Shown: positions 1-19,350 of the stretch, piece by piece
Position numbering within the stretch: the stretch's first letter is position 1
Layout: each line of letters begins with the position of its first letter
Source: Lachnospiraceae bacterium
GTDB taxonomy: Bacteria > Bacillota > Clostridia > Lachnospirales > Lachnospiraceae
DNA: 29,941 bases
Reading direction: 5' to 3'
Assembly (NCBI GenBank): GCA_017412265.1
Contig: JAFPYK010000211.1
Coordinates: 1 to 29,941 of the forward strand
Notes under the pieces: generated by a model
Seen by the model: the letters and a program-made list of their open reading frames with translations, nothing else
Database searches by the model: none
What the model was told of the DNA's origin: nothing
Position numbers and translations under genes: made by a program

Positions 1-1068
1 ACCGAAGATGTAGGTGCCCAGGATGACCTGCTTGACCGTGCGCCCGCGGCTGATGCTTCCCATGAAGAACGGAGAAGCCACCGCCCAGACCATCCAGTAG
101 GCCCAGAAGAAGATCGTCCAGTTCTGCGGGAAATTATTCGTGCGCAGGGCGTCCGTCCAGGTCGAGAGCCCGATGAAGTTCTGCAGCATATTGCCCAATG
201 CGGAGAAGCCGGTCTCGAGGATATATCTCGCCTCATTGCCGAAGATCAGCACGTAGACTAAGAGCGCCCCGAACAGGTACATGCACGCGTTGGCAAGCCA
301 GGATACACCCTTGATGCCTCGCATGACCGCGATCGTGTAGACCAGGCAGGTCACAACCAGAATGCCGATGGTGATAAACTTCGAGCCGTGAACGCCGAAG
401 AGTGTCGAGAGCGCTTCGCCAAGCAGAGGCGTCGCCACCGAGAAGGTCGTCGCGGTTCCCGCGATCAGCGCGAACACGGCCAGGACGTCGATGATCTTGC
501 CGGGCAGTTTATCCGTCTTATTCCCGAGGATCGGCCGGCAGGCCTCGGAGTACTTCTGCTTGTGAACGCCGCGCACGTGCAGCATGAAGCCGAAGCAGGC
601 CGCCAGCGTCGCGTAGAAGCTCCACGGGATCGGGCCCCAGTGAAAGAGCGGATAGGTCGACGCCCAGTCCTGGAACGAACCCATATCCGCCACGTGCGGC
701 TCCAGCATATACGAGATCCACTCGCACATCGAATAGAACAGGATGTCCGCCGCCAGGCCGCAGGTGAATACCATCGCGCCCCAGGTCCAGAAATTATACT
801 GCGGCTTCTCGTCCGGTCCGCCCAGGCGGATCTGGCCGATGTCCGAAAATGAAATCCACAGCGAGACCACCAGGACACCCAGGCCGATCACCAGGTAATA
901 CATGCCGAAGGTATCCCCCAGGAAGTCGCGGATCGCGGTCAGCGCGTTCGTCGACCCCTCCGGGTTGATCACAAAGAACAGGCAGAAGACCAGGATCACC
1001 GCAAACGGGATGATCGTCGTTGCCGGATCCAGCCTCCGCAGGCTCTTCTTCTCACTCTGCTTATCCAT
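1..1068 (-). CDS. BCCT-family transporter, probably choline-specific (BetT-like); 3' end lies beyond the window
   Basis: Missing from the ORF track because it has no stop in the window. Manual translation from the ATG at 1068 gives MDKQSEKKSLRRLDPATTIIPFAVILVFCLFFVINP, WGAMVFTCGLAADILFYSMCEW and NFPQNWTIFFWAYWMVWAVASPFFMGSISRGRTVKQVILGTYIFG, which carries the BCCT signature. A GGAGG RBS overlaps the end of the upstream licC. Confidence 0.92.
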   Translation of the reverse strand, partial: MDKQSEKKSLRRLDPATTIIPFAVILVFCLFFVINPEGSTNALTAIRDFLGDTFGMYYLVIGLGVLVVSLWISFSDIGQIRLGGPDEKPQYNFWTWGAMVFTCGLAADILFYSMCEWISYMLEPHVADMGSFQDWASTYPLFHWGPIPWSFYATLAACFGFMLHVRGVHKQKYSEACRPILGNKTDKLPGKIIDVLAVFALIAGTATTFSVATPLLGEALSTLFGVHGSKFITIGILVVTCLVYTIAVMRGIKGVSWLANACMYLFGALLVYVLIFGNEARYILETGFSALGNMLQNFIGLSTWTDALRTNNFPQNWTIFFWAYWMVWAVASPFFMGSISRGRTVKQVILGTYIFG

Positions 1069-1069: not shown

Positions 1070-1795
1070 TCAATTAACCTCCTTTACTGCTGCCGCATAG
1101 CTCTCATCCAGAGCCGCAAGCTCCGCCAGGCTGTCCACCTCGATGATGTCCCCCGCCTGCATCGGTGTAACCCCCAGCCGGTAGTTCTCCGGGTGGCAGA
1201 ACATCGCCACGTCGTCCCAGTAGATCTGCCGGTTTTTCCTCTCTTCAAACTCCAGCTCCAAGTCCTTCCGGAGCTGCCTTCCGTCTTCTGCGCTCCACCG
1301 GCTGATCGAATACAGCTGCCAGCCGTGCGCCCCGCCGGTGCGCGAACAGGAGGTCACGATCCCCTCCTCGTCCGTCTGCATCAGCCATTCATCGGTCTCC
1401 GCGTCGATCCAGACCCCGTTGTAGCCGGACCGCTCTGCCTCCGCCTTCAGGATCTCCGGCCGATAGATGATCTGGTCTCCGTCCAGGATCATCACATCCT
1501 CCAGATGCTCTCTCGCCACATAAAGCGACGAGATATTGTTGCAGGTATCGTAGTACGGATTCTCGATCAGCTGCACGCCCGGATACTCCGCCGGCAGCCC
1601 CGCGAATTTCTCCTTCAGATACCCGACCACGATATAGATCTCCGTGATCCCGTTGGCATGCAGCCCCTCGATCACGGTATCAATCATGCGCCGACCGTTC
1701 ACCGGAACCAGCGGCTTCGGGACCGTGAGCGTGAGCGGACGCATCCGCTGCCCGACGCCGGCTGCCATGATAATCGCTTTATTTACTCGAAACAA
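1070..1795 (-). CDS. licC: LicC-like choline-phosphate cytidylyltransferase (241 aa, TTG start)
   Basis: AIIMAAGVGQRMRPLT..PKPLV, NNISSLY, ILDGD, YWDDV and EVDS motifs. Lies between a choline kinase fusion and a BCCT transporter. Confidence 0.85.
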   Translation of the reverse strand: MFRVNKAIIMAAGVGQRMRPLTLTVPKPLVPVNGRRMIDTVIEGLHANGITEIYIVVGYLKEKFAGLPAEYPGVQLIENPYYDTCNNISSLYVAREHLEDVMILDGDQIIYRPEILKAEAERSGYNGVWIDAETDEWLMQTDEEGIVTSCSRTGGAHGWQLYSISRWSAEDGRQLRKDLELEFEERKNRQIYWDDVAMFCHPENYRLGVTPMQAGDIIEVDSLAELAALDESYAAAVKEVN

Positions 1796-3551
1796 CGTCC
1801 TTCATCTCCTCTGTCGCATAGCGGTAATAATCCTTCGCGAACCGGTACTGCCGCAGCGAATACTCGCCGAATTCCACGCCGAGGCTCCGCTTGTACTCGC
1901 ACCAGTTGCTCCACAGAAGTCCGCAGGCCGCCACATAACAATAGATCTTGATGCGCGTCTCCTTCGGGCAGTCCCCTTCAAAATACAGGTCGATCAGCCG
2001 GTCGATCTGCCATTTGTCATACAGGCTGTAGATCGAGAACATCGCCAGGTCCACATGCGGGTCCTGCATGCCCGAGTACTCCCAGTCCGTCAGCTGGAGC
2101 TCCTCCTCCCCGTCTGCCCCCTTGCAGAAGAGGAAATTATCCGGCACCGCGTCGATGTGCGTCAGCACACGCTCCTGCACATGCCAGTCAATGTAGCTCT
2201 TGAGAGAGAGGACCTGCTCCTTCGTCTTCTCGTAATCCCGGTACACCGAAGGCGCCCCTTTCCAGAGCGACTCATAGAATTCGATCTGTCCGAAGATGTC
2301 AAATGAATGGTCCACCGTGAGCTTCATCTCGTGGAACTCGCGCAGCTTGTCCATGCATCTCTTCAGGTCCGGCACACTGTCCGGATCCGCCACCCGGATT
2401 CCCTCCAGGTACTTCGTGATCTTGAATCCGTTCTCTGGATTGATATAGACCACGTCGTCGCAGAGCCCGTGCCCGGCGATCGTCTGATAGACCTTCGCCT
2501 CGTGGTGACGGTCGATCAGCTGGTCCGTGCCCTCGCCCGGGATCCGCATGATGAATTTCTCGCCGCGGACCGAGAAGAGGAAGGACCGGTTCGTCATGCC
2601 CTTCTTGAGCACCTGAATGCCCGTGATCTCCTCATGCCTGCAGCCGAAGACGCCGCAGATGACGTCCAGTGCGTCCGACTGCAGATGGTTCGAATCCGCG
2701 TCCAGCTCCCGCAGCTGCTCGTACGTATTGATCTCGACGATCTCATCCCCGGGCGCGATCCGCGCGCAGACGGTCATCCGGCCGTCCTCGAAGAGCGCCT
2801 TCTCCCAGAACGCGTCGTCATTCTTCGGATCCGCGCACAGAAGCGAGATCCGCTCCCGCAGCAGGCCCGCCTCCGGGCCCGTCAGGTAAGCGATTCCGAT
2901 CATACGGCTCCCGGTCTCGCCCGCGTCCGTGTGGACCAGCTCCCCCTTGCGGTTGATGCGCACTTCGCTCTCCGCGTCCGGCTGGTCGCTCACCATGTAC
3001 CAGGAATACAGCTCCCTCTCCGCAAACGGATTCTTCTCGCACCACAGATCCGCCGGAAGGATGTAGGTATTCGAGATCAGCCGGACCGCCAGGTCCAGGC
3101 TCTTTATATTATTTCTTGTCGCATATTCTTCGTTATAGATCAGCTGAACACCGAATTCATCGATCAGGTACTCAAACGCATCCTTCATGTAGCCGACCAC
3201 CACGGTGATATCCCGGATGTTGACTTCATGCAGCTGCCGGATCAGCCGGTCGATCAGCCGCTCCCCGTGCACCTCCAGAAGCCCCTTCGGCGTGTTCAGA
3301 TTGATCGGGACCATCCGCATGCCGAATCCCGCCGCAAGAATGATCGCATTCTTCGGCCGGTGCGCGGTCATCTCCTCCGCGGCCTTCCTCGTCAGCCGGA
3401 TCCCGTCATCTACAAACCCCGCATCCATCAGGCTGCGCAGCGAACGGTTGATCATCCCCAGCGAACAGCCGCAGCGCTCCGAGAGCACACGCTGATTCAC
3501 ATAAGGCTCCGCTGCCAGCGAAAGGAGAACATCTTTTTCTTGCTTGTTCAT
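1779..3551 (-). CDS. Three-domain fusion: winged HTH + LicC-like nucleotidyltransferase + LicA-like choline/ethanolamine kinase (590 aa)
   Basis: N-terminus NQRVLSERCGCSLGMINRSLRSLMDAGFV (wHTH); AIILAAGFGMRM..PKGLL (NTase); KKGMTNRSF, MRIPGEGT, THIDAVPDNFL, DWEYSGM (choline kinase-like). Start moved from 3581 to the ATG at 3551 because of the GAGAGG RBS and because 3581 lies only about 10 nt downstream of the -10 box, leaving no room for an RBS. Confidence 0.9.
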   Translation of the reverse strand: MNKQEKDVLLSLAAEPYVNQRVLSERCGCSLGMINRSLRSLMDAGFVDDGIRLTRKAAEEMTAHRPKNAIILAAGFGMRMVPINLNTPKGLLEVHGERLIDRLIRQLHEVNIRDITVVVGYMKDAFEYLIDEFGVQLIYNEEYATRNNIKSLDLAVRLISNTYILPADLWCEKNPFAERELYSWYMVSDQPDAESEVRINRKGELVHTDAGETGSRMIGIAYLTGPEAGLLRERISLLCADPKNDDAFWEKALFEDGRMTVCARIAPGDEIVEINTYEQLRELDADSNHLQSDALDVICGVFGCRHEEITGIQVLKKGMTNRSFLFSVRGEKFIMRIPGEGTDQLIDRHHEAKVYQTIAGHGLCDDVVYINPENGFKITKYLEGIRVADPDSVPDLKRCMDKLREFHEMKLTVDHSFDIFGQIEFYESLWKGAPSVYRDYEKTKEQVLSLKSYIDWHVQERVLTHIDAVPDNFLFCKGADGEEELQLTDWEYSGMQDPHVDLAMFSIYSLYDKWQIDRLIDLYFEGDCPKETRIKIYCYVAACGLLWSNWCEYKRSLGVEFGEYSLRQYRFAKDYYRYATEEMKDVVSSK

Positions 3552-3557
3552 GAACAA
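3544..3557. promoter_or_regulatory. Perfect 14-bp palindrome TTGTTCATGAACAA over the start codon of the wHTH fusion; candidate operator
   Basis: The palindrome is read directly from the sequence, with an extra TGAACA half-site at 3575-3580. Operator function is inference. Confidence 0.4.
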
Positions 3558-3591
3558 TGACCTCTCAATATTTGTGAACATCTACAGCCAC

Positions 3592-3620: not shown

Positions 3621-3783
3621 GCCTCTCGCCCGCCCACGCCCCATTTCCTCAGAAATTCTTCAGAATCTCATGCCGGACGGCCCCCTCTGGCCCTTCACAC
3701 TCTCCCGCTTGCGCATTTTCCCGACGATCTCGGACCGATCCGCGGCAAAATGTTGCTGATTTCAACTATACGTAGAAGAAGCA

Positions 3784-3812
3784 TTGACATCATTTTGTGA
3801 ATATGTTATATT
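3784..3812 (+). promoter_or_regulatory. Sigma70/SigA promoter with extended -10, driving the ugd cassette
   Basis: TTGACA (3784-3789), 17-nt spacer, TG-n-TATATT (-10 at 3807-3812). Confidence 0.8.
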
Positions 3813-3885
3813 TTCCAGCAGACAACCGCAGAATGTGTTGTCTTCAGCAACAGATTATTACTCTCAGACGAGAAAGGAATATAAG

Positions 3886-5388
3886 ATGAAACGTTTGGAC
3901 CGTACCGATATGATCCGGCAGATCGTCTCCCGCCGCAAAGCGCTGCATCTCACCCAGACAGAGCTCGCGCAGCGCACCGGGATGAACCGTTCTGTCCTGT
4001 CCAACCTGGAAAATGGTATCTATATGCCCAGCATCGAACAGCTGGAATTGATCGCAGAGGAATTATCGATCGATATCACCTCTCTTTATAAGGAAGATTC
4101 CCCCGCGAAGGCGGAGGTTCCCGGAACTTTTCAGATCGCCGTCGCCGGTGTCGGATACGTCGGCCTCTCCCTGGCCGTCCTGTTATCCCAGCACCACCGC
4201 GTGACCGCCGTGGACATCGTCCCCGATAAGGTCGACAAGGTCAACCGCCTTCAGTCCCCGATCCGCGACGAATACATCGAGCGCTTCTTCTCGGAAGCCT
4301 CCTTGGGCGAGCGCGAGCTGGACCTGAAGGCCGTCACCGACGGCAGCCCGGCTTACCTGGCCGCGGACTTCATCATCATCGCCGCGCCGACCAACTACGA
4401 TGCCAAGCTGAATTTCTTTGACTGCTCCGCGGTCCGCTCCGTGCTGGACCAGGTGCAGGCCGCCTGCGCGTCCCGCCAGGATTCCCCGGTCGTGGTCATC
4501 AAGTCCACGGTGCCCGTCGGCTTCACCGCCCAGGTGCGCAGGGAATACCCCGGCCTCAAGATCATCTTCAGCCCGGAGTTCCTCCGCGAATCCAAGGCCT
4601 TATACGACAATCTGTATCCGAGCCGCATCATCGTGGGATGCGACGAAGACACCCGGGAGGATGCCCGGATCTTCGCCTCCCTCCTGCAGCAGGGCGCCTG
4701 GAAGAACCCCGTGGAAACCCTCTTCATGGGCACGACCGAGGCAGAGGCGACGAAGCTCTTCGTCAACACCTACCTCGCGCTGCGCGTATCCTTCTTCAAT
4801 GAGCTCGACACCTACGCAGAGGTGAAGTCGCTGAACTCCGCCTCCATCATCAAGGGTGTCTGCACCGACCCCCGCGTCGGCGACTTCTACAACAACCCGT
4901 CCTTCGGCTACGGCGGCTACTGCCTGCCGAAAGACACGAAGCAGCTTCTCGCCAACTATCAGGACGTTCCCGAGAACCTGATCCAGGCCATCGTGGAATC
5001 GAACCGGACCCGAAAGTCCTTCATCGCAGACCGCGTCCTGGAGATCGCAGGTGTCTACGGCAGCAACGATTCCTACTCCCCGGCGCGCGAGCAGCAGCAG
5101 AGAGACATCGTCGTCGGCGTGTACCGGCTGACGATGAAGTCCGACTCGGACAACTTCCGCCAGTCCTCGATCCAGGGCGTCATGAAGAGAATCAAGGCCA
5201 AAGGCGCCACGGTCATCATCTATGAGCCCACCCTGGAAGACGGCTCCACGTTCTTCGGCAGCAAAGTCGTCAACGACCTGGAGACCTTCAAGAAAGCCTG
5301 CGGCTGCATCCTCGCCAACCGCTACGACCCCGCGCTCGACGACGTCGCCGACCGCGTCTACACCCGTGACCTGTTCCGCAGAGACTGA
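3886..5388 (+). CDS. ugd: XRE/Cro-type HTH fused to UDP-glucose 6-dehydrogenase (500 aa)
   Basis: [29 protein letters not shown] (XRE HTH), then [48 protein letters not shown] (catalytic Cys) and YTRDLF. Start moved to the ATG at 3886 (AAAGGA RBS); the ORF-track start at 3784 is the -35 box. Confidence 0.93.
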
Positions 5389-5422
5389 TGAACGATCCGT
5401 CAGGAAGGAGAATTTTACCAAT

Positions 5423-6601
5423 ATGAGCAAGAAATGCGAAGAACGCTTTTATGAGATCTATCAGAGAGACGCAGAAGGCGTCTCCTTCTGCCCCTACCGT
5501 ATCTGCCCGATCGGTGCCCACTCGGACCACAACCTCGGCAAGATCACCGGCCTCGCGATCAACAAGGGCATCCATATCGCCTACCGCCCGAAGAAGAACG
5601 GCGTCATCGAGATGGCTTCCCTCCAGTTCCCGAAGCGAGCCCAGTGGCACATCCATTCCGTGCCGAAATTCAAGGAAAATGACTGGGCCGACTACCTGCG
5701 CGGCGCGACGTGGGCTCTCGAGAAGCACCACACCCTGAACGTCGGCCTCTGCGGCGTCATCGAGGGTTCCCTCCCGATCGGAGGCCTCTCCTCCAGCGCG
5801 GCCGTCATCCTGGCCTTCCTCTCCGCTCTCTGCAAGGTGAACGGAATTCATTTAACCGCGCAGCAGATGATCGACACCGCGTTCGACGCGGAGAAGAACT
5901 ACGTCGGCGTCTCCGTCGGCACCCTGGACCAGAGCTGCGAGGTGTTAGGCAAGAAGGACCATCTCCTCTACCTCGACACCAGGGACAACTCCTACGAGCT
6001 GATTCCCACCAGCCCGGTGATGAAGCCCTACAAGATCGCGATCTTCTTCAGCGGCCTGGAGCACAGCCTCGCCGGATCCAAGTACAATATGCGTGTCGAC
6101 GAGCTCCGCTCCGGCGTCTACGCGCTGCAGGCCTATGCCGGTCTCCCTTATGGGAAGTTCAACGAAGCCAACGCGAGAAATGTCCCGCGCGAGATCTATG
6201 ACGCCTACAAGGACCGCCTGCCGATCCCGTGGGCGAAGCGCTGCGAGCACTGGTATACGGAGTTTGAGCGCGTGGAGAAGGGCGCCGAAGCCTGGCGCCG
6301 CGGCGACATCGAGGAATACGGCCGCCTCTCCTTCGAGTCCGGCTGGAGCAGCATCCACAACTGGGAATCCGGCGCTCCGGAGCAGATCCGTCTCTACGAG
6401 ATCATGCGCGAGACCAAGGGCATCTACGGCGGGCGCTTCAGCGGAGCCGGCTTCAAGGGCTGCTGCATGGCCCTGATCGATCCCGCCTACGTGGAGAGCA
6501 TCGAAGAATCTGTCACAAGCAAATACCTGGGATCTTTCCCGGAACTCACCGGCAAATACTCCTTCCACCTGTGCGAGAGCGCCAACGGAACCGAACGTTA
6601 A
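5423..6601 (+). CDS. GHMP-family anomeric sugar kinase, galacturonokinase-like (392 aa)
   Basis: PYRICPIGAHSDH, GLSSSAAV, GTLDQS, FSGL, YNMRV, KRCEH and YGGRFSGAGFKGCCMA. Start set at the ATG at 5423 after an AAGGAG RBS. The family is certain; the substrate is inferred. Confidence 0.85.
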   Translation: MSKKCEERFYEIYQRDAEGVSFCPYRICPIGAHSDHNLGKITGLAINKGIHIAYRPKKNGVIEMASLQFPKRAQWHIHSVPKFKENDWADYLRGATWALEKHHTLNVGLCGVIEGSLPIGGLSSSAAVILAFLSALCKVNGIHLTAQQMIDTAFDAEKNYVGVSVGTLDQSCEVLGKKDHLLYLDTRDNSYELIPTSPVMKPYKIAIFFSGLEHSLAGSKYNMRVDELRSGVYALQAYAGLPYGKFNEANARNVPREIYDAYKDRLPIPWAKRCEHWYTEFERVEKGAEAWRRGDIEEYGRLSFESGWSSIHNWESGAPEQIRLYEIMRETKGIYGGRFSGAGFKGCCMALIDPAYVESIEESVTSKYLGSFPELTGKYSFHLCESANGTER

Positions 6602-6620
6602 GTTCAGAAAGGACTCACAT

Positions 6621-7358
6621 ATGAAATGCATTGTTTTAGCGGCAGGCTATGCCACGCGTCTGTATCCTCTGACCGAGAACTTTCCGAAGCCCCTTCTGAA
6701 GGTCGGCGACAAAACCATCCTGGACTGGCTGCTCTGCGACATTGACCGCTCCGGCCTGATCGACGAATACATCGTCATCTCCAACCACCGGTTTGCCGGC
6801 CATTTTCAGGCATGGGCAGAGAATCACACGCTTCCTCTTCGCATCATCGACGACGGGACCTCTTCCAACGAGACGCGTCTGGGCGCGGTCCGTGATATCC
6901 AGTTCGCTCTGGATGAGACCGGCATCAGCGACGACCTCCTGATCGTCGCCGGCGACAACCTCCTGGACTTTTCCCTGGTCTCCTTCCTGCAGTATGCGCA
7001 GGCGAAGCAGACCTCCTGCACGATGCGCTACTACGAGGCAGATGAAAAACGCCTGAGCAAGAGCGGCGTCGCCGAGATCTCGGACGATGAGCGGATCTTG
7101 TCCTTTGAGGAGAAGCCGGCCGTCCCCAGGTCCCACTGGTGCACGCCTCCCTTCTACATCTACCGCAAGGAAGACGCGGCCCGCATCAAGGACGCCCTGC
7201 AGGACGGATGCGGCACCGACGCTCCCGGCAGCCTGATCTCCTGGATGTGCCGGCACACCGTCATGCACAGCATGCAGATGCCCGGCAGCCGCTATGACAT
7301 CGGCGACCTGAAGAGCTACGAGAACGCACAGAAGAATTATCACGGATTACAGAAGTGA
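6621..7358 (+). CDS. Sugar-1-phosphate nucleotidyltransferase (NTP_transferase family, 245 aa)
   Basis: MKCIVLAAGYATRLYPLTENFPKPLL, AGDN, FEEKP, DIG motifs; AAGGA RBS. Confidence 0.9.
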   Translation: MKCIVLAAGYATRLYPLTENFPKPLLKVGDKTILDWLLCDIDRSGLIDEYIVISNHRFAGHFQAWAENHTLPLRIIDDGTSSNETRLGAVRDIQFALDETGISDDLLIVAGDNLLDFSLVSFLQYAQAKQTSCTMRYYEADEKRLSKSGVAEISDDERILSFEEKPAVPRSHWCTPPFYIYRKEDAARIKDALQDGCGTDAPGSLISWMCRHTVMHSMQMPGSRYDIGDLKSYENAQKNYHGLQK

Positions 7359-7367
7359 GGTAAAGCG

Positions 7368-8432
7368 ATGAACAAGACTAGAGTCGAACTGGAAGGAAAA
7401 ACCATCCTTGTGACCGGATCTCCCGGATTCATCGGGGCCAACCTGGTCCTCAAGCTGCGGGAAGAGCTGCATCAGGGAAGAGTCATTTCCCTCGATAATA
7501 TGAACGAATATTATGATCCCGCCTTGAAGGATTACCGGCTTGCGCTGATCGAGAAGCAGGATTCCCCCGTAGAGCACATTTTCATCAAAGGCTCCATCGC
7601 GGATGCCGCTCTGGTCCGCGAGGTATTTGAGACCTACCGCCCGCAGGTGGTCGTGAACCTGGCCGCACAGGCCGGCGTCCGGTATTCGATCGATCATCCG
7701 GACGTCTATATCGAGAGCAACCTGATCGGCTTCTTCAACATTCTGGAGGCCTGCCGCCACTACGAGGTCGAGCACCTGGTCTACGCCTCCAGCTCCTCCG
7801 TGTACGGAGGCAACACCAAGGTTCCCTTCTCCGTGGAGGACAAGGTCGACAACCCGGTCTCCCTGTACGCGGCAACCAAGAAGAGCAATGAGCTCCTGGC
7901 CCACAGCTACTCCAAGCTGTACAACATCCCTTCCACGGGCCTGCGTTTCTTCACGGTCTACGGACCCGCCGGCCGGCCGGATATGTTCTATTATTCCGCC
8001 ACGGAGAGACTTGTGCGGGGCGAGTCCATCAAGCTCTTCAACTACGGCAACTGCAAGAGAGACTTCACCTATGTGGACGATATCGTCGAGGGCATCTACC
8101 GCGTCATGCAGGGTGCTCCCGCGAAAATGACCGGAGCGGACGGGCTTCCGATCCCGCCCTACGCGGTCTACAACATCGGCGGCGGCACACCGGAGAATCT
8201 GATGGATTACATCCAGACGCTCCAGGAGGAGCTGGTCGATGCCGGCGTTCTCCCGCAGGACTATGATTTCGAGGCCCACCGGGAGCTGGTCGGCATGCAG
8301 CCCGGCGATGTGCCGGTCACCTACGCGGACTCCTCTGCCCTGGAGCAGGACTTCGGCTTCCGGCCGTCCATCGGAATCCGCGAGGGCCTTCGCGCATTTG
8401 CCCGCTGGTACAAGGAGTACTACGGCATCTGA
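7368..8432 (+). CDS. UDP-glucuronate 4-epimerase (extended SDR, 354 aa)
   Basis: TGSPGFIG, NLAAQAGVRYS, YASSSSVYG, PVSLYAATKKSNEL, GLRFFTVYGPAGRPDM and QPGDV are characteristic of the UDP-GlcA epimerase subgroup. Confidence 0.88.
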   Translation: MNKTRVELEGKTILVTGSPGFIGANLVLKLREELHQGRVISLDNMNEYYDPALKDYRLALIEKQDSPVEHIFIKGSIADAALVREVFETYRPQVVVNLAAQAGVRYSIDHPDVYIESNLIGFFNILEACRHYEVEHLVYASSSSVYGGNTKVPFSVEDKVDNPVSLYAATKKSNELLAHSYSKLYNIPSTGLRFFTVYGPAGRPDMFYYSATERLVRGESIKLFNYGNCKRDFTYVDDIVEGIYRVMQGAPAKMTGADGLPIPPYAVYNIGGGTPENLMDYIQTLQEELVDAGVLPQDYDFEAHRELVGMQPGDVPVTYADSSALEQDFGFRPSIGIREGLRAFARWYKEYYGI

Positions 8433-8451
8433 CTTCCGTCTGACACATGAC

Positions 8452-8492
8452 AAAAACGCCTGAGAATCCGCAGATTCTCAGGCGTTTTTTTT
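8452..8492. terminator. Bidirectional intrinsic terminator between the convergent epimerase and wzx genes
   Basis: AAAAACGCCTGAGAATC-cgca-GATTCTCAGGCGTTTTT perfect inverted repeat; T8 on the plus strand and T5 on the minus strand. Confidence 0.92.
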
Positions 8493-11134: not shown

Positions 11135-12007
11135 TTATTTTGCAGCTCTCTGCTGAAAGAGGCGGATCCGGTTCGTGTGATATTTCACCTCGTGGATGCG
11201 TCTGGGCAGCGGCGGTACACTCATATAATCACCGTAGAGCAGCGCCAGCAGTTCCTCGCGCCGCACCGGGACGCGGATCGGCCCGTAGCCCGTCTCGACG
11301 ACCTCGGTCTCCTTCATGAGCTCTGCCGGGTAATCCTTCCAGTCCGCATAGGTATCCGCAGTCACATAATAGGTAGCTCCCTCCAGCGGGTACTTCTCCG
11401 CAAGCTCCCGGTAAGTCCGGTCGATCTTCCCGACGGACGCCAGCAGGGCCGGCAGTTTTCTCTTCAGAAGCAGCGAAGCAAACCGCCGCGGCCGTCCCAT
11501 CGACTCCTCGATCAGATTCACAAACTTCCCGTAGCGCTTCTCCGAGATATCCGCCATCTGCCTGGCAAATGCCCTCCGCTCCGCCTCATCCTCCGGCGAG
11601 CCGATCAGGAAGAAGACATCCACGTGCAGCGCCTCGGTCCGGTACTCCTTCGGAGCCAACCGCATGATCATATGCCGGCAGCGCGGATCCAGGTCCGGCG
11701 AGTACGCATAATACTCGCTGCCAAGGTCCTTCCGGAGCGCCTCCAGAAGCTTCTCCTTCTCCGCGAAAGGCACCAGCACGTCCACGTCATAGTCCCACGG
11801 AATCTGGCCTCCGTCGCGCACGACACCCAGCAGAGACCCGTAGGCGAGCTGGTAATTGACCTGGTTCTTCTCACAGACCCGGTGCAGCTTGGCCAGCGTC
11901 TTCGCCGTCACGCCCTGATACACCTGAAATTCCTTGTATGTCTCTTCAAAATCCGCGGGACACTCATCCCACGCCAACGCTTCCTTTAAAAACTCTTCCG
12001 ATGTCAT
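11135..12007 (-). CDS. licD: LicD/fukutin-family phosphotransferase (290 aa)
   Basis: [34 protein letters not shown] motifs. Confidence 0.88.
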   Translation of the reverse strand: [290 protein letters not shown]

Positions 12008-12928
12008 CTACGACTCCTTGCCGGGCAATTTGATCCAGCTGCCCAGCAGCAGATCATATTCCTTCTTGTCAAACGGTGCGAACCCCGCCCCGTCATAGAA
12101 CGTCAGCTCTCCGAAATACAGCTTCCCGCTGACACAGTACCAATCCACCCGGATGTGCGGGATTCCTTCCGACAGGATGCGGGAGCAACGAAGCATCTCA
12201 TCCAGTACCGGCGGCTTCGGGAAATCCTTCCCCGAGGTGTGGTATTTCCGGAGCTGTCCCTGCGAGATCTCGCTTCTCTTCCACTCCACGTCATAGTAAT
12301 CCTGCGTGGGATGGTCCGAGTATCTCCCCTGGTGCAGCTCGATGAGCTTCGGCTCTCCGCCGAAGCACAGGACCTTATAATCCCTCAGTTCCTCTCCGGT
12401 GTCGTCCTCCATGTACTGCTCTGCGATGATGCGCGGCTTGATATCCTTGTACGGCCACTCCCGGAACTTCTGATAATAGTTCTGCTTCAGCCCCTCGCGC
12501 AGGGTCTTCCGGGCCTTCTCTTCATCCAGCTTGCTGCGGTCCTTGCAGATCACGAGCCCGTGGCTGTCGTGCGTGCACTTGAGCACGAACTGGTCGGGCA
12601 GCTCCTTAAAATCGATGTCCTCCGCCCGCTCCCAGACACCCAGATTCGGAATCACATACTGTGCCCCGATCTTCTGCGAGACATATTCCTTCACCGCATA
12701 CTTGTCTGCCATCGTCGTATACAGCGGATTGTGATCATGCAGCTTCAGCCACTGCAGCTTCTCGTTGAATGTGCGCGGGTTTTCCAGATCCAGCGGATAT
12801 CCCATCAGCAGCCGGAACTTCTTCTTCAGGAACTTCTCATCCGACATCTTATTCAGGAAACCATAATCCGAGAGCACCGCGAAACGGTACTTCGGATCGC
12901 GCAGCAAACGAATGCATTTTTCGATCAT
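12008..12928 (-). CDS. TupA-like ATP-grasp protein, copy 1 (306 aa)
   Basis: PRTFNEKLQWLKL, DKYAVKEYV, FVLKCTHDS, REWPYKDIKPRIIAE, DYKVLCFGG, RVDWY, GELTFY. Confidence 0.88.
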   Translation of the reverse strand: MIEKCIRLLRDPKYRFAVLSDYGFLNKMSDEKFLKKKFRLLMGYPLDLENPRTFNEKLQWLKLHDHNPLYTTMADKYAVKEYVSQKIGAQYVIPNLGVWERAEDIDFKELPDQFVLKCTHDSHGLVICKDRSKLDEEKARKTLREGLKQNYYQKFREWPYKDIKPRIIAEQYMEDDTGEELRDYKVLCFGGEPKLIELHQGRYSDHPTQDYYDVEWKRSEISQGQLRKYHTSGKDFPKPPVLDEMLRCSRILSEGIPHIRVDWYCVSGKLYFGELTFYDGAGFAPFDKKEYDLLLGSWIKLPGKES

Positions 12929-13032: not shown

Positions 13033-13944
13033 CTATCTCTGCTTCGGCGGCAGGACGATCCAGTCTCCCAGCGTTCTGTCCCATTCCTCCGGCGTGAACT
13101 CCTCGAAGCCCCCGCCCGGGAAGAACGTCATCTCTCCGAAGAGGACCTTCCCGTCCAGATCATAGAAATCCACCCGCACGAAAGGAATCCCTTCGCTGAG
13201 GATCTCCGCAAGCCTGCACATCTCTTCATACTGCTCCGGCTTGTCGATCACTTCACTGCTGGCAGGATAATGCCGCTCGAAGGTCATCCGCTCCCAGTCC
13301 TTGTCGAAGAACGTGACCTTCAGCCCCTTCCCGTTGAAGCGGTCCGTGCAGACAAATGAGCACTTGACCTCGCCTCCGAAGCACATGATCTTATAATCAT
13401 TGAGCTCCCCGTGAGCATCCTCCAGGTAGGGCTCTGCGAGAATTCTCGGCTTGACGTTCTTGTACGGCCACTCTCTGCCGTAGTAGAAGAAATTCCTCGT
13501 CAGGCAATGATCAATCTTCTGTTTGGCGGCCTCTTTGTCCAGCCGGCTCTTGTCCTTGCAGATGACCAGTCCGCCGCTGTCATGCGTGCATTTGAGCACA
13601 AACTGATCCGGAAGAGCATCAAAATCGATCTCCTCAAAGGAATCCCACACGCCCAGCGTGGGAATGACATATTCTCTGCCGATCTGCTTCGACACATACT
13701 CCTTGACCTTCTCCTTGTCTACCAGGTCCGTATACTTCGGATTGTGGTCATAGAGCTTCAGCCACTGCAGCTTCTCGTTGAACGTCTTCGGCTCTTCGAG
13801 GTTCGGCTCACAGCCCATCACCACCCGGAATTTCCTGTGGATGAATTCCTCATCCGAGAGCCGGTTTAAGAACCCTTTGGACGCATTGACAAGAAATCTG
13901 TACTTTGGGTCTCTCGCATAGCGGATTAATTTCTGAATCAACAT
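13033..13944 (-). CDS. TupA-like ATP-grasp protein, copy 2 (303 aa)
   Basis: PKTFNEKLQWLKL, FVLKCTHDSGG, REWPYKNVKPRILAE, RVDFY, GEMTFFPGGG. Start moved to the ATG at 13944 (GAGGAG RBS). Confidence 0.88.
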   Translation of the reverse strand: MLIQKLIRYARDPKYRFLVNASKGFLNRLSDEEFIHRKFRVVMGCEPNLEEPKTFNEKLQWLKLYDHNPKYTDLVDKEKVKEYVSKQIGREYVIPTLGVWDSFEEIDFDALPDQFVLKCTHDSGGLVICKDKSRLDKEAAKQKIDHCLTRNFFYYGREWPYKNVKPRILAEPYLEDAHGELNDYKIMCFGGEVKCSFVCTDRFNGKGLKVTFFDKDWERMTFERHYPASSEVIDKPEQYEEMCRLAEILSEGIPFVRVDFYDLDGKVLFGEMTFFPGGGFEEFTPEEWDRTLGDWIVLPPKQR

Positions 13945-14067
13945 CGGTTTCTCCTCGCGCAAGTGAAACATATTGCCTGTCAGAGAAACAACGTTTCATA
14001 CTCCCATGTATGCTCAGATTCGTTACTTAGAGATCCGTTTTACCGGGACGCCTCCCGGCCTGCCCGG

Positions 14068-15102
14068 TCAGCGCTCGAAGGAAGACTTCTTCGGGTAAAT
14101 GCTCTCAAATGCATCGATGAACTGCTTCTGAATCTCTTCAAAATGATCGCCGTGATAATCATCGTTGATGCAGAGCATCTTGTGCTCACGGTTCCGGATG
14201 ATCCTCAGCGTCTCCTCATTCTTCTTCGCGTCCGCGCAGATGCTGGTGGACACCCCCGCCTTCGGCGAGCGCGGCATGAAGGTTCCCTTCGCCAGCTGCC
14301 AGTAGGAGAACATCCGGCTGCTCACGTCGGTGGGCTGGCGGAACTTGTGCTCACAGGCCAGCTTAAGGACTTCCTCCTCGTGCTGCCAGGCATCCTCAAA
14401 TGTGGACTTTAAGTAAGAATAAGGCACATGAGGGCTCTTGAAGCCCGTGAACTTGATCCACGGTGTCAGCAGAAGCGTCCGGATGACCTGCTTGCCATAG
14501 ACAGGCGAGTACCATTTTCTCCAGTTCTTCCGCATGCTCTCACGCTTGTTGAAGTTGCGGTTGATCGCCGCGACGTTGAAGATCAGGGTCGTATAGAGAG
14601 ACTGCGCCTTGATCGGGTCACCGTCATTGGTCGTCTCGTTGATCGTGATCGCGTCCAGCACTGCGGTATCACAGGGCAGCCCGTTCTTGAAGAAATCCGT
14701 GGCCTCCGTCTTGCGCAGCAGGAACATATCGTCGTTGAAATACACGAACCGCTCCGAAAGTCCCGGAATCCGGTGAAGATTCATCTCAATCGGCCGGCAC
14801 GAGAAGGTCGGAAGATACTCCGCCGGGATAAAGTCCTTGTGATTGACGATCTTGAGCTTCGGGTGATCCGTGTTGAGCCATGCCGGAAGATGACCCCAGG
14901 TCACGAAATAGATGTTCCTGACCCAGGTTGCATTCTCCTCAACGGCGCGGAACCAGTATCTCAGGAAATCCCAGTCGCGGTAGCGGTTCGCCCGCACGTC
15001 GCCGCTCTTCTTCTGCTGGTATTTTGCTTTTTCCTCTAACCAGGCCGGATCGCTTCCGTCCACCCAGGTAATCACAATATCAATATTCTGCTCGCTTCCC
15101 AT
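14068..15102 (-). CDS. Stealth-family hexose-1-phosphate transferase (344 aa)
   Basis: Stealth conserved regions: IDIVITWVDGSDPAW; RYWFRAVEENATWVRNIYFVT; PIEMNLHRIPGLSERFVYFNDDMF; MLCIND. Confidence 0.92.
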   Translation of the reverse strand: MGSEQNIDIVITWVDGSDPAWLEEKAKYQQKKSGDVRANRYRDWDFLRYWFRAVEENATWVRNIYFVTWGHLPAWLNTDHPKLKIVNHKDFIPAEYLPTFSCRPIEMNLHRIPGLSERFVYFNDDMFLLRKTEATDFFKNGLPCDTAVLDAITINETTNDGDPIKAQSLYTTLIFNVAAINRNFNKRESMRKNWRKWYSPVYGKQVIRTLLLTPWIKFTGFKSPHVPYSYLKSTFEDAWQHEEEVLKLACEHKFRQPTDVSSRMFSYWQLAKGTFMPRSPKAGVSTSICADAKKNEETLRIIRNREHKMLCINDDYHGDHFEEIQKQFIDAFESIYPKKSSFER

Positions 15103-16167
15103 TCAGTCTCCCTGCACTTCCTTCATAATTCCAATGGTTCTTCCCACGCCCTGCTTCAGGTCGTAGCGCGGGCGCCAGCCCAGCTGCCGCAGCTTCTCTC
15201 CGTCCAGCCGCGCCTTCGTCGCGACGCTGTAACCCGCGGCTTCCACCGCATCCGGAAGCTCGAAGACCACCTTCCTGCCCACGGTTTCGGCAACCGCCGC
15301 GGCAAGGTCCTTCAGGCGGCTGTCTCCGCTCTCGTCCGCGATATTATAGGCCTCTCCGTCCTGCCCCAGAAGCATGACCGTCAGCAGGCCGCTGACCGCG
15401 TCGGCCACATACGTGAAGCTGTAGTACTGCTCTCCCTTGGACTTGAGCACGATGTCCTCATCATTTAACGCCTTGCGGATAAACTGGCTCAGCGCTTTCG
15501 TGTCATCCATCTTCATCGTCGGCCCGTAAGACCGCGTGAGCCTGGGGATGACCACGTCCAGGTTCTTCTGGGCCCGGTAAGCCTGGCACAGCGCCTCGCC
15601 GCACCGCTTGCTCTCCGGATATCCCGCGCGCATCGTATTGCAGTTGATATAGCCGCAGTACGCTTCGTCAAATAACTCCACGTCTCCCCGGTTATTCCCG
15701 TAGATCTCATTGGAAGACGCGAAGACAAACCGCTCCGCGCGGCGGCTCGCCGCAAACTCCAGAAGCTCATACAGCCCGAAGACATTGATCGTGATCGTGC
15801 CGATGGGATCGGTCGCATACTGCTTCGGATGCGTATTCGAGGCGAGATGCAGCACATAGTCCACCCTCTCGAGCGAAGAACCGTCCAGAGGCTCCCGCAT
15901 ATCGTGCGCGAGGAAGGCCAGACGCTCATCCCCCGCCCATCTGCGGAATCTCCCGGCCGCGGATTCCGGATTCCTCGTGATGGCAACCACCTTGCAGGAG
16001 ATGTCCTCCTGGTTTTTACACATCAGCACGTCGGTGAGAAAGCTGCCGATCAGCCCGGTCGCGCCGGAGATCAAAAGCGTCTTCCCGTCCAGCTTCTCCC
16101 AGGGGAGCGCCAGCGAGCACACCGCCTTCAGATCCTGACAGTATAAAGGACTATCGTAAAGGTTCAT
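15103..16167 (-). CDS. Extended SDR, probable CDP-ketose reductase of a CDP-alditol pathway (354 aa)
   Basis: ISGATGLIG, HLASN, ASSNEIYG, YPESKRCGE motifs; directly follows an IspD/TarI-type cytidylyltransferase. The specific function is inferred from this pairing. Confidence 0.7.
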   Translation of the reverse strand: MNLYDSPLYCQDLKAVCSLALPWEKLDGKTLLISGATGLIGSFLTDVLMCKNQEDISCKVVAITRNPESAAGRFRRWAGDERLAFLAHDMREPLDGSSLERVDYVLHLASNTHPKQYATDPIGTITINVFGLYELLEFAASRRAERFVFASSNEIYGNNRGDVELFDEAYCGYINCNTMRAGYPESKRCGEALCQAYRAQKNLDVVIPRLTRSYGPTMKMDDTKALSQFIRKALNDEDIVLKSKGEQYYSFTYVADAVSGLLTVMLLGQDGEAYNIADESGDSRLKDLAAAVAETVGRKVVFELPDAVEAAGYSVATKARLDGEKLRQLGWRPRYDLKQGVGRTIGIMKEVQGD

Positions 16168-16190
16168 ACCCTTTCACCTCTCCAGATGTA

Positions 16191-16907
16191 TTATTTCAGC
16201 CAGTTGTTCGAATCCGCTTTCAGGAAGGCCTTAAAGAGCTCCAGGTCATCCTTCGTCGTCAGCTTGATGTTCCGGTCTGAGCCCGCTGCGAAGTACAGCC
16301 GCTCTCCCAGTTCAACCATCATCGTGTTCGTGTAGGAAGAACCGTAGATGCCGATCTCCTTCTCGAACGCCTCATGATACGCGTCAAAGAGGCGGCGGAA
16401 CCGGTAGGCCTGCGGTGTAGACACACGCCGGATCGTCTCGCGGGGGATATACTGGACTGTGCTGATATCATCGTCCGCCACGAAGATCTGCTCATTGTAA
16501 GGCATGGAGGTCACCGCATTGCCGTACTGCCGGCACTTCACGATTACGTCCGTGAGGACCGTCGCGTCGACCAGCGGGCGGATCCCGTCGTGGATGATAA
16601 CCGTATCGTCATCCGCGCAGATTCCCTCCAGGTTGTAGACACCGTTGCGAATCGATTCCTGGCCGGTCTTCCCTCCGGGAACGATCCATTTCAGCTTATC
16701 GATGTTAAACTGCTTCGCATAGGCCCAGACCACGTCGGCCCAACCCTCGATGCAGACTACCTCGATCGCGTCCACCTGCGGATGCTTCTGGAATCCCTCC
16801 AGTGTGTAGATCAGCACCGGCTTGTCATTGATGGTGATGAACTGCTTGGGAATACTCTGGCCCATTCTGCTGCCGGATCCGCCGGCAATGATAACTGCAA
16901 CTGTCAT
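16191..16907 (-). CDS. IspD/TarI-family cytidylyltransferase (238 aa)
   Basis: IAGGSGSRMGQSIPKQF, GQESIRNG, IHDGIRPLV, STPQAY, NIKLTTKDDL. Confidence 0.9.
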   Translation of the reverse strand: MTVAVIIAGGSGSRMGQSIPKQFITINDKPVLIYTLEGFQKHPQVDAIEVVCIEGWADVVWAYAKQFNIDKLKWIVPGGKTGQESIRNGVYNLEGICADDDTVIIHDGIRPLVDATVLTDVIVKCRQYGNAVTSMPYNEQIFVADDDISTVQYIPRETIRRVSTPQAYRFRRLFDAYHEAFEKEIGIYGSSYTNTMMVELGERLYFAAGSDRNIKLTTKDDLELFKAFLKADSNNWLK

Positions 16908-18142
16908 GTTAGATCTCCTGACTCTCTTAGTATCTTATCCTTGTCTGTGTGTTTGTTTCTGAACTCAATATATATTGCCAGATACAGCAGATAATTCGTT
17001 CTGCTGTCATAGGACACAAATCCGACGTCCAGCACCAGCATCAGCAGGAGCAGGATCACGCAGATCATCGCGTCATCCTCCACCCATCGCCTCTGCTGCC
17101 GGACAGCTCTCGTCAGAAGGAGGAACGGCATGCTGTAATACAGCAGGAATCCGATCAGGCCTCCGTCCGCCAAAAGCTCCATATAGTTGTTGTGAAGATA
17201 ATACTCTCCCTTGTTGAATACCTCTCCGCCGATCATTCTGGCATTGTCCATGCCGATGCCGAGGAGCGGATGCTCCCTCCAGATCTCGACGCCCAGCTCG
17301 ATCAGCTTGACCCGGTTCAGCGTCGAATTATCGATCTTGCCCTCGCCGCTGAAGAAATTCAGGAATGTCTCAAGCCGGCGGATAATGCCCGCGAACATGG
17401 GCATTCTGGAGGCGACCACCAGCGCGACGACGCCCAGGATCAGAATCAGCCCGAACCGCGTCACCCGCTTGAATCGCTTGGGATCCGACGCGTTCTTCAT
17501 CAGGATCAGCAGGCCGGCGCCGGCGACCAGAAGCAGGAACGCCTTGCGGCTCTCGGAAACTGCCAGGACCAGGAACGAAGGAATCAGGAACACGATATAC
17601 CAGCGGATCTTCCGCTCCTTCAGAATCAGGTACACCTGGATGATGATCGCGTAGGCGATGCTCATGCCCAGCGTGTTCGCGTTCATCGCGTCATTGGAGA
17701 TTCGCTGCTTGCCCAGTGCCTCCAGCACATTCTTAACACCATAGAAGAGGAAGGCATAGACCGAGATCAGATATCCGGTCCACATGACGAGCCTGAGGAT
17801 CTTCTCGACCGAAGCCCTGCTCATGCAGACCAGGCTGACCAGCAGTGTCGTGATCAGCACCCACAGCAGGTCCTTCGTCTTGCTGACCGCCAGCCGCGGG
17901 TACAGTGCCCACAGGCTGCTCGCAAAACAGAAAATCATGAAGAGCAGCAGATGGATCAGCGGCAGCGGATAGACAAACAGAATCCGGAAATGCCCGAGCA
18001 TCAGGTACCAGACCAGGGTCAGCACCACCGTTGCCAGGACGAGGATCTTTCCGTGAGGGATGTGGCCTCCGACGAACAGAGAGACGTAGACCATCAGAAG
18101 CAAGCCCCATATTATTCTGTTTTGCTCGATTCTTTCTCTCAT
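16904..18142 (-). CDS. wzy: Wzy polymerase / O-antigen-ligase-family membrane protein (about 412 aa)
   Basis: Multi-TM; NANTLG, SESRKA, a large loop with STLNR, HPLLGIG and HNNYMELLADGGLIG. Start moved to the ATG at 18142 (AAAGG RBS). Confidence 0.8.
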   Translation of the reverse strand: MRERIEQNRIIWGLLLMVYVSLFVGGHIPHGKILVLATVVLTLVWYLMLGHFRILFVYPLPLIHLLLFMIFCFASSLWALYPRLAVSKTKDLLWVLITTLLVSLVCMSRASVEKILRLVMWTGYLISVYAFLFYGVKNVLEALGKQRISNDAMNANTLGMSIAYAIIIQVYLILKERKIRWYIVFLIPSFLVLAVSESRKAFLLLVAGAGLLILMKNASDPKRFKRVTRFGLILILGVVALVVASRMPMFAGIIRRLETFLNFFSGEGKIDNSTLNRVKLIELGVEIWREHPLLGIGMDNARMIGGEVFNKGEYYLHNNYMELLADGGLIGFLLYYSMPFLLLTRAVRQQRRWVEDDAMICVILLLLMLVLDVGFVSYDSRTNYLLYLAIYIEFRNKHTDKDKILRESGDLT

Positions 18143-18195
18143 CGTCTCAACCTTTCTGTCATCCCCGGATCCGGATTGCATCCCGGGAGCCTCCC

Positions 18196-19350
18196 TTAAG
18201 CCTGCTTTGATTCAATCAGGGATACCGCAGTCTCGCAGGCCTTGCCGGTATCGTAGCTGTCCAGTGCGGCATGATGCTTCTTCACACGCTCCCGGTACTC
18301 CTCATCCGAGAAGGTTTCCATCTGGCGCACCAGCTCCTCGTTGGAACGCGCGATCGGGAACGGCCACTGGCTTGTGGGCACATAAAACCCTCTCTCTGCT
18401 TCGTACTGGTCAATATCCGGTGCATAGATGAAGCACGGGCGCATGGTCAGTGAGAAGTCCCACATCAGAGAGGAGTAATCGGTAATCACTGCAGAGCATG
18501 CATAGAGCAGTTCCTGCATGTCCGGGTAGCGCGTACAGTTCACGACATCCATGCCGGGGAACTCCTTGACCCCGATCCGCGGATGAAGGCGGATGCCGAA
18601 TTTCCAGCTGCCGCCGAGGGTTCTCGAGAGCGTCTCGGTGACCTTCTCGTAATCCACGTCGATCAGGCGGGCTTCCTTGCTGTTCGCGAAGCTCGAAGTG
18701 TCGGAGCGGTACGTCGGCGCATAGAGCACCAGCTTCTCGTCCTCCTTAAGCCCCAGGGTCCGGTAGACCTTCTCCCGGATCTCCGGGCGCTCCTTGAAGA
18801 AGATATCATTTCTCGGAAGTCCGGCAGGGATGCACTGCTTCGGGTCAAACATCATCGCAGGCGCCTCATACTTTGTAAATGCGCCGCAGGACGCGAAGAG
18901 GATGTCCGTGTTCGACGCGTTCATCTTATCCTCGGCCCGGCTGTACTTCGTATCCCAGACGTCGATGCCGACCTTCTTGTAGGCGCCGCCGCCGTGCCAG
19001 GTGTTGATGATCTTCTGCTTCCTGCGCTTCGGAAGATACGATACGCCGCCGCAGTTCGTGAAGATCACGCGGCTCGTCAGCACATAGTAGAAGTACTTGA
19101 CCGACATCGGCTTGACCGCGACTGCGTCTGGCGCGGTCTCCGTCCCGGCCTTCACCGGGTAGATTACCTCGTACTTGCCGGGACATTTCTCCCGAAGGTA
19201 CTCATTGATGTATTTCAGACTGTCATTGTAAGTGAATCCCTGTTCGTTAATCAGGGCAATCCGGTTCTTGCGGACCGGGAACACCCAGTACACGTGCAGA
19301 ACCGCGTGCAGAGCTCTCTTAATCGCTAAATGCAGCCATTCCTTGTTCAT
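18196..19350 (-). CDS. TagF/TagB-family CDP-glycerol/alditol phosphotransferase (about 384 aa)
   Basis: NTWHGGGAYKKVG, GLPRND, LYAPTYR, DMQELL, ITDYSSLMWDF. Start at the ATG at 19350 (GAGGTG RBS); the GTG at 19362 is an alternative. Confidence 0.9.
   Translation of the reverse strand: MNKEWLHLAIKRALHAVLHVYWVFPVRKNRIALINEQGFTYNDSLKYINEYLREKCPGKYEVIYPVKAGTETAPDAVAVKPMSVKYFYYVLTSRVIFTNCGGVSYLPKRRKQKIINTWHGGGAYKKVGIDVWDTKYSRAEDKMNASNTDILFASCGAFTKYEAPAMMFDPKQCIPAGLPRNDIFFKERPEIREKVYRTLGLKEDEKLVLYAPTYRSDTSSFANSKEARLIDVDYEKVTETLSRTLGGSWKFGIRLHPRIGVKEFPGMDVVNCTRYPDMQELLYACSAVITDYSSLMWDFSLTMRPCFIYAPDIDQYEAERGFYVPTSQWPFPIARSNEELVRQMETFSDEEYRERVKKHHAALDSYDTGKACETAVSLIESKQA

Follow-up and report, generated by a model that had tools for sequence, protein, structure and literature searches.

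Why should genes for a sugar-1-kinase and a small nucleotidyltransferase lie between those for a UDP-glucose dehydrogenase (Ugd) and a UDP-glucuronate 4-epimerase? This question is raised by a four-gene operon of a Lachnospiraceae bacterium, located within a window of 29,941 nucleotides (nt; the whole stretch of DNA analysed here, contig JAFPYK010000211.1 of assembly GCA_017412265.1). The genome is a 1.96-Mb metagenome-assembled genome, 84% complete, and near-identical DNA is found in bovine gut metagenomes. We consider it reasonably probable that the operon salvages free D-galacturonic acid (GalA) into uridine diphosphate (UDP)-GalA alongside de novo synthesis, GalA and uridine triphosphate (UTP) being the substrate and the nucleotide that we infer. 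A preliminary description of this DNA had proposed such a salvage operon, and the proposal is supported by the current study in every part that could be tested by computation, namely the clade and sugar motif of the kinase, the co-occurrence of the genes, the habitat of the carriers and the presence of a candidate operator.

The four genes are found on the plus strand between one strong promoter and one strong terminator (3784-8489), and are separated by gaps of 34, 19 and 9 nt. The features of the operon are as follows.

3751-3767, strand not given: operator-like site O1, TGTTGCTGATTTCAACT, 17 nt before the -35 hexamer
3784-3812, plus strand: sigma-70-type promoter, TTGACA-17-TATATT with an extended -10 TG, 11 of 12 consensus matches
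3836-3852, strand not given: operator-like site O2, TGTTGTCTTCAGCAACA, between the -10 hexamer and the ribosome-binding site, with an exact core match
3886-5388, plus strand: g1, helix-turn-helix (HTH)-Ugd fusion, 500 amino acids (aa), ATG with GAAAGGA 5' of the start
5423-6601, plus strand: g2, GHMP sugar-1-kinase of the galacturonokinase (GalAK) clade, 392 aa, probable GalA 1-kinase
6621-7358, plus strand: g3, small sugar-1-phosphate nucleotidyltransferase of RmlA/GalU fold, 245 aa, probable UDP-uronate pyrophosphorylase
7368-8432, plus strand: g4, short-chain dehydrogenase/reductase (SDR) of the UDP-glucuronate 4-epimerase family, 354 aa
8452-8489, strand not given: intrinsic terminator (17-bp stem, T run) that could serve both the operon and the convergent wzx gene (wzx end at 8500)

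Open reading frame (ORF) calls, Pfam domains and a signal scan confirmed the promoter, the four tightly spaced genes and the terminator that had been described previously, and no terminator-like sites were found on the plus strand inside the operon. The start of g2 was set at the methionine of MSKK..., as in its homologues; the mechanical ORF start is 5222. Long antisense ORFs have no family support and were taken as by-products of a G+C content of ~59%. No inverted repeats of note were found around the kinase gene in the window.

The kinase carries the evidence for the type of sugar that is salvaged. g2 contains the Pfam domains GalKase_gal_bdg, GHMP_kinases_N and GHMP_kinases_C, and reaches none of the galactokinase cut-offs of NCBIfam: it has 181.9 bits where TIGR00131 requires 226.65, and it is also below all four PRK galactokinase models. 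The AlphaFold model of g2 (predicted local distance difference test score, pLDDT, 94.5) has Arabidopsis galacturonokinase Q8VYG2 as its top Swiss-Prot fold match (35% identity, expect value (E) 1.9e-40, template modelling (TM) score 0.93), with all galactokinases ranked below it at 25-31% identity. By BLASTP, g2 matches the Camellia galacturonokinase at 34% identity and 196 bits, and the galactokinase (GalK)-like protein of its own genome at 25% and 56 bits. In a maximum-likelihood tree, a branch with support of 100/99 splits 58 GalAK-like proteins, including g2 and both plant enzymes, from E. coli GalK, a GGHTDY protein and the own-genome GalK-like protein. A scan of 1.8 billion representatives with g2 recovered a large clade with identity down to ~31%, almost all members of which contain PYRICPLGAHxDHQ, and two members of which are named galacturonokinase (Camellia sinensis and Tetracentron sinense). 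Four independent tests (clade scan, BLASTP, tree and fold) thus place g2 with plant galacturonokinase and not with galactokinase.

The residues around the sugar point in the same direction. The sugar motif PYRICPIGAHSDH is identical in 77 of 80 members of the g2 family, and the remaining three vary at flanking positions only. Compared with human GALK1 and Pyrococcus GalK, g2 keeps the equivalents of Arg37 (R26), His44 (H33), Asp46 (D35), the catalytic Asp186 (D169) and Tyr236 (Y221). Glu43 of GalK, which we take to be placed by the C6 hydroxyl of galactose, is replaced by Ala32 in g2 as it is in plant GalAK, giving the GAHxDH motif of GalAK and not the GEHxDY motif of GalK. Yang and colleagues are said to have found in 2009 that A41E abolishes the activity of the Arabidopsis enzyme and that Y250F lets it accept D-glucuronic acid (GlcA), which we treat as a lead. 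We suggest that g2 is probably a GalA 1-kinase. The genome also encodes the GalK-like protein mentioned above (G000:C65; L085:409-2829; ~430-470 aa), which adjoins galE, has the motif GGNHTDH and scores 133.9 bits, below the TIGR00131 cut-off; it is probably the real galactokinase, of a Clostridia/Bifidobacterium type without the classical Glu.

The partner of the kinase, g3, has matches to PF00483 (NTP_transferase) and PF12804 only. It falls below all curated equivalogs (RmlA, GalU and AglF), the best being AglF with 70 bits against a cut-off of 400, and homologue searches returned generic labels only for g3, as they did for the epimerase g4. The catalytic motifs of RmlA (Arg, Lys, GDN and EEKP) are retained. 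The alignment with RmlA is limited to residues 1-187, which suggests that the C-terminal, sugar-binding part is particular to g3. The UDPGP domain (PF01704) and fold of the plant UDP-sugar pyrophosphorylase (USP) were not found in g3. An RmlA homologue is reported to accept GalA-1-phosphate (GalA-1-P; PMC9056299), which indicates that the fold is able to handle this substrate. The use of UTP by g3 is suggested by the company of the neighbouring genes. A 584-aa 'fusion' of nucleotidyltransferase and epimerase was rejected as evidence of linkage, because it aligns to g3 only up to residue 183 and comes from a single contig.

The first and last genes of the operon would encode the usual bacterial pair for de novo synthesis. 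In g1, HTH_3 (residues 16-65) precedes the complete set of three UDPG_MGDP_dh domains (83-487). The alignment of residues 82-500 spans the full length of E. coli K-12 Ugd at 55% identity, and the cysteine motif GGYCLPKD is retained. The score of g1 against PRK15057 is 499.6, under the cut-off of 757. By this strong homology, the C-terminal part of g1 is a UDP-glucose 6-dehydrogenase. g4 has the Pfam Epimerase (SDR) domain and a model with pLDDT 80.7. Its Swiss-Prot fold matches of ranks 1-12 (37-47% identity) comprise CapI, two uncharacterised proteins (one of E. coli O111, and MJ1055) and nine UDP-glucuronate 4-epimerases, namely S. meliloti LpsL and those of R. rhizogenes, Arabidopsis (GAE1-6) and T. 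geofontis; past rank 12 (dehydratases and GalE) the identity drops to 22-29%. A 69% match to g4 was seen in Subdoligranulum variabile. The motifs YAATK (Tyr-x3-Lys of SDRs) and SSSSVYG, the latter at the site of Asp-Glu in 4,6-dehydratases, together with these matches identify g4 as a member of the UDP-glucuronate 4-epimerase family. The name 'dTDP-glucose 4,6-dehydratase', given by the depositors to the best PDB match (5u4q), conflicts with both the motifs and the Swiss-Prot matches, and was taken as a generic label.

The HTH-Ugd fusion is present in 23 of 83 related loci, the titles seen being those of Clostridia and other Bacillota. In three loci of Clostridia (L053, L063 and L079), tandem dehydrogenase genes precede the kinase, HTH-Ugd being followed by a second Ugd that is ~58% identical. 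A palindrome with the consensus TGTTGCT-N3-AGCAACA recurs 5' of HTH-ugd genes. When up to one core mismatch is allowed, 21 occurrences fall 5' of 24 HTH-ugd genes (6.2 kb in total) and 43 in ~922 kb elsewhere, a ~70-fold enrichment. It lies within 260 nt upstream in 14 of the 24 loci, with sites farther upstream in L065, and two palindromes per locus are frequent, near -30 to -50 and near -130 to -190. Sites equivalent to O2, at -29 to -50, are found in L005, L008, L034, L039, L058, L062 and L072. In the 29.9-kb window, TGTTG-N7-CAACA with at most one mismatch occurs only at O1 and O2 (chance expectation 0.39). The two sites flank the promoter on both sides, a layout as for a repressor that blocks or loops its own promoter. 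We therefore regard the pair as a candidate operator for self-regulation by HTH-Ugd, in which the HTH domain would bind the DNA. The preliminary description had placed the operon under feedback from this protein; the regulation by HTH-Ugd gains from the conserved palindrome around the promoter, and the 'feedback' by UDP-sugars is a guess.

If the kinase and the nucleotidyltransferase form a pathway with Ugd and the epimerase, the genes should travel together, and the preliminary description had made its proposal depend on this. The survey covered 53 loci of other genomes, those with sufficient flanking DNA. In 52 of them, the gene directly 3' of the kinase gene is that of the nucleotidyltransferase. 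A close homologue of the epimerase accompanies the kinase in 39 loci and Ugd in 35; both occur in 27 and one or both in 47. The four genes do co-occur elsewhere, in shuffled orders. Twelve arrangements were found, for example ugd-kin-nt-epi, kin-nt-ugd-epi, epi-kin-nt-ugd and ugd-epi-kin-nt (kin, kinase; nt, nucleotidyltransferase; epi, epimerase), and the persistence of the linkage through this shuffling across phyla suggests a shared pathway. The neighbourhoods examined are capsule loci and variable or defence islands, and no pectin-degradation context was found in them, which argues that the pair serves biosynthesis. In other genomes, the kinase/transferase module often adjoins genes of anti-phage or toxin-antitoxin type, i.e. 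HamA with a helicase and AbiC/AbiEii-like, ApeA-like HEPN and SocA genes. These defence-type neighbours are found at the following positions.

L001/L002, 12840-16783
L003, 1457-6467 and 12045-17173
L052, 8331-12272

An NTP_transf_5 (PF14907) gene lies directly 5' of the kinase gene in two unrelated loci (L003:6559-7854 and L091:2580-3746).

Close homologues of the kinase number more than 8000 (protein clusters), with at least 592 species representatives. The carriers include Prevotella, Bacteroidales, Clostridia, Lachnospiraceae, Oscillospiraceae, Christensenellales, Fibrobacter, Treponemataceae, Erysipelotrichaceae and one planctomycete, and nearly all of the named ones are rumen or herbivore-gut genomes, in agreement with the habitat that had been predicted. 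The Prevotella and Lachnospiraceae carriers are metagenome-assembled. Within the order to which the window belongs, only 7 of 164 good genomes have a kinase match at E 1e-100 or better, the best being 57-65% identical; identity to members of other phyla reaches 80-83%. Identity of about 80% across phyla suggests that selection on the module is strong in the guts of herbivores. The kinase gene follows its host in G+C content (r = 0.68; G+C at third codon positions, GC3, from 0.40 to 0.88), indicating that many of the transfers are not recent and that the protein is strongly constrained. As judged from these comparisons, the kinase/transferase pair is horizontally spread. Kinase fusions of the 'Rosetta stone' type, in which the first 180-310 residues of the kinase are joined to NTP_transferase, AAA_25, Ugd, recombinase or SIS domains, resemble products of misassembly or frameshift and were not used. 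Most likely they are assembly chimeras, made possible by the ~80% identity of the gene among many co-occurring rumen species. True recombination break points are possible for the fused entries P0123, P0124, P0135, P0170 and P0181.

Several observations weigh against the salvage of GalA by this operon. The identity between g2 and the characterised plant enzyme is only 34-35%, and the bacterial family is missing a plant insertion, which in the Camellia protein amounts to ~19 residues past the position that corresponds to residue 84. The own-genome GalK-like protein has Asn at the Glu position, which indicates that loss of Glu alone leaves neutral sugars possible. In g3, the base-contacting Gln of RmlA has no confident placement, so that the nucleotide specificity is not readable from the sequence, and the 84%-complete genome yielded no GalU above the family cut-off, thus g3 could have another role. 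The pair occurs without Ugd or epimerase nearby in 6 of the 53 loci, and 9 of the 24 HTH-ugd loci have no operator match within 260 nt. Transcription evidence is weak, as one RNA-labelled run gave two exact contigs, inside g2 and g3, at a depth of ~2-3 and with DNA carry-over possible.

These observations allow other roles for the pair to be weighed. It could activate another sugar (D-galactose, L-arabinose, N-acetylgalactosamine, D-fucose or a rare sugar) and be near Ugd and the epimerase only through the clustering of nucleotide-sugar supply genes. The replacement of Glu by Ala, which also widens the pocket, the loci in which the pair stands alone, the absence of a curated family that claims g3, its C-terminal sugar-binding part unaligned to RmlA, and the presence of only one characterised member in the kinase clade are all in agreement with this. 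That sole characterised member is specific for GalA, however, and g2 is nested in its clade; a separate GalK-like gene is present beside galE; and the tie to two uronate-specific enzymes across phyla and rearrangements exceeds casual clustering, so we regard another sugar as unlikely. Still less likely is a linear pathway, the weakest of the alternatives and one to which we give very little credence, in which g2 and g3 make UDP-glucose or UDP-galactose from free hexose in place of a missing GalU or GalT, followed by Ugd and then g4. The four genes share one transcript unit and GalU was not seen above its cut-off, although the latter means little at such genome completeness. To our knowledge there are no anomeric glucose kinases of the GHMP fold, and g2 is without the Glu of galactokinases and scores under their cut-offs. 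Furthermore, the pair is also found without Ugd, and the Ugd part of g1 resembles the UDP-glucose-specific E. coli enzyme at the 55% identity given above.

The remaining alternative concerns the choice between the two uronic acids. With GlcA as the substrate, g2 would be a glucuronokinase and g3 would make UDP-GlcA, such that the pair is an alternative to Ugd and UDP-GalA would follow through the epimerase. In the rumen, glucuronoxylan releases GlcA. Loci with kin-nt-epi or epi-kin-nt and no Ugd nearby (11 of 53) suit a pair standing in for Ugd, some members of the wider g2 clade carry Phe at the Tyr position, and zebrafish has a kinase fused to a small nucleotidyltransferase of bacterial type for GlcA (PMC3938481). 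Nevertheless, we consider GlcA an improbable substrate. The family of the window keeps the Tyr, as well as the Asp that reads the axial O4 in galactokinases, and the 8 of 53 loci with ugd-kin-nt or kin-nt-ugd and no epimerase equally fit a GalA route that replaces the epimerase. The known glucuronokinases form a GHMP family of their own that hardly resembles GalAK (PMC2823444), and none of them, whether of the GlcAK or the DrGK type, is among the 30 best Swiss-Prot fold matches of g2. The kept Tyr and Asp, together with the clade membership of g2, favour GalA over GlcA.

For GalA salvage, we propose two converging routes that would supply UDP-GlcA and UDP-GalA to the adjacent surface-glycan locus. 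In the de novo route, the Ugd domain of g1 would oxidise UDP-glucose to UDP-GlcA, which g4 would interconvert with UDP-GalA. In the salvage route, g2 would use adenosine triphosphate (ATP) to phosphorylate free GalA at C1, and g3 would join the resulting GalA-1-P with UTP to form UDP-GalA, from which the epimerase could then give UDP-GlcA. The two reductions of nicotinamide adenine dinucleotide (NAD+) that the Ugd step entails would be spared by salvage, a possible benefit for an anaerobe that lives by fermentation. Binding of the HTH domain of g1 to the two palindromes around the promoter would allow the enzyme to repress its own operon, and a modulation of this repression by a nucleotide sugar or by NAD(H) is a guess. 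More tentatively, and with more doubt than belief, we suggest that HTH-Ugd is one of the 'trigger enzymes': it would be active as a UDP-glucose dehydrogenase and in addition bind both promoter-flanking sites, tuning the operon to the nucleotide-sugar or NAD(H) state. On this reading, the kinase/nucleotidyltransferase pair would have spread horizontally among several phyla of rumen bacteria as a dedicated means of making capsule straight from the pectin monomers of the diet, thereby avoiding NAD+-dependent oxidation.

The proposed two-step logic, from GalA through GalA-1-P to UDP-GalA, is that of plant GalAK (Arabidopsis At3g10700, EC 2.7.1.44) and USP. g2 resembles plant GalAK in its GHMP clade, its GAHxDH motif and its conserved Tyr, and differs in the low identity and in lacking the plant insertion after the sugar motif. 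The plant partner is a UDPGP-family USP, whereas the partner here is a 245-aa enzyme of RmlA fold; and unlike the plant genes, the bacterial ones are adjacent, share one operon with the de novo route and are horizontally spread. A GHMP kinase and a nucleotidyltransferase also form the salvage system of Bacteroides fragilis Fkp (L-fucokinase/GDP-fucose pyrophosphorylase), which brings a host- or diet-derived sugar straight into bacterial surface glycans; Fkp differs in its sugar and nucleotide, in being a fused protein and in its kinase clade. The zebrafish DrGKUP likewise couples a GHMP uronic-acid 1-kinase to a short nucleotidyltransferase of bacterial type for salvage, but its kinase is of the glucuronokinase family, both parts are in one chain, and its pyrophosphorylase activity (putatively for UDP-GlcA) was not detected in standard assays (PMC3938481). 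g1 and g4 are clear homologues of the bacterial de novo pair of Ugd and UDP-glucuronate 4-epimerase (Cap1J, GlaKP, LpsL and BcUGAepi). The operon differs from the usual pair in the N-terminal XRE-type HTH on Ugd and in the kinase/nucleotidyltransferase pair between the two genes. Our search of the literature accessible to us found no study of a bacterial galacturonokinase or of UDP-GalA salvage, and no description of the operon design, the HTH-Ugd fusion or the spread across phyla. The preliminary description had called the operon undescribed, which holds in so far as no native bacterial equivalent was found in the literature, and has to be tempered as the automatic annotation of IMG already names some bacterial homologues of g2 'galacturonokinase'.

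The operon faces a long minus-strand surface-glycan locus (8500-29939), the genes of which encode Wzx, a CapA-like protein, LicD, two TupA-like ATP-grasp proteins, Stealth, an IspD and SDR pair (CDP-ribitol-like), Wzy, a TagF-like transferase, GT2, an initiating sugar transferase, a DegT aminotransferase and a PglF-like dehydratase. The features around the operon are as follows.

1-1068, minus strand: BCCT transporter
1073-1795, minus strand: second small nucleotidyltransferase
1782-3581, minus strand: fusion of winged HTH, nucleotidyltransferase and choline kinase
11138-12007, in the minus-strand glycan locus: LicD-family transferase
12011-12928 and 13036-13971, minus strand: adjacent TupA-like ATP-grasp paralogues (E 5e-72 and 8e-75)
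14071-19362, minus strand: Stealth hexose-1-phosphate transferase, SDR and IspD pair (CDP-ribitol-like), Wzy and TagF-like glycerophosphotransferase
19362-20624, 25653-27083 and 28998-29939, minus strand: three long ORFs of 421, 477 and 314 aa

The TupA-like ATP-grasp family ligates amines to the carboxyl groups of uronic acids, and the TupA-like pair are likely consumers of the products of the operon, amidating uronic-acid carboxyls. The cluster of Stealth, SDR-IspD, Wzy and TagF-like genes suggests a polymer resembling teichoic acid, joined by phosphodiester links and assembled through a Wzx/Wzy route. The BCCT transporter, the nucleotidyltransferase and the choline-kinase fusion suggest a set for choline uptake and activation and, with LicD, a phosphocholine decoration of the polymer. 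The DNA-binding domain fused to a LicC/LicA-like enzyme parallels the design of HTH-Ugd. The three long ORFs had no Pfam match at E 0.01, with one sub-threshold match to DUF4199. These surroundings indicate that the operon is a nucleotide-sugar supply unit for a complex polymer, which probably contains uronic acid and is decorated with phosphocholine. The genome carries the uronate isomerase UxaC (695 bits) and two genes of the altronate/galactarate-dehydratase family, so hexuronates are very likely imported and burned, and free GalA would be available in the cytoplasm.

The palindrome TGTTGCT-N3-AGCAACA as a candidate operator of HTH-Ugd is new here, and an HTH-Ugd with a defined operator candidate offers a simple test case for an enzyme that doubles as a repressor. 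A group working on UDP-GlcA 4-epimerase reports that GalA-1-P has gone from the market and that, for their synthesis, the stability and activity of the plant kinase were too low (PMC7984243). UDP-GalA is hard to make, and a robust bacterial kinase/transferase pair would be useful. If the proposed role is true, a salvage branch assigned by textbooks to plants would be added to bacterial nucleotide-sugar metabolism, and gut and rumen bacteria would move a diet-derived sugar acid straight into their surface glycans, linking pectin breakdown to the make-up of the capsule.

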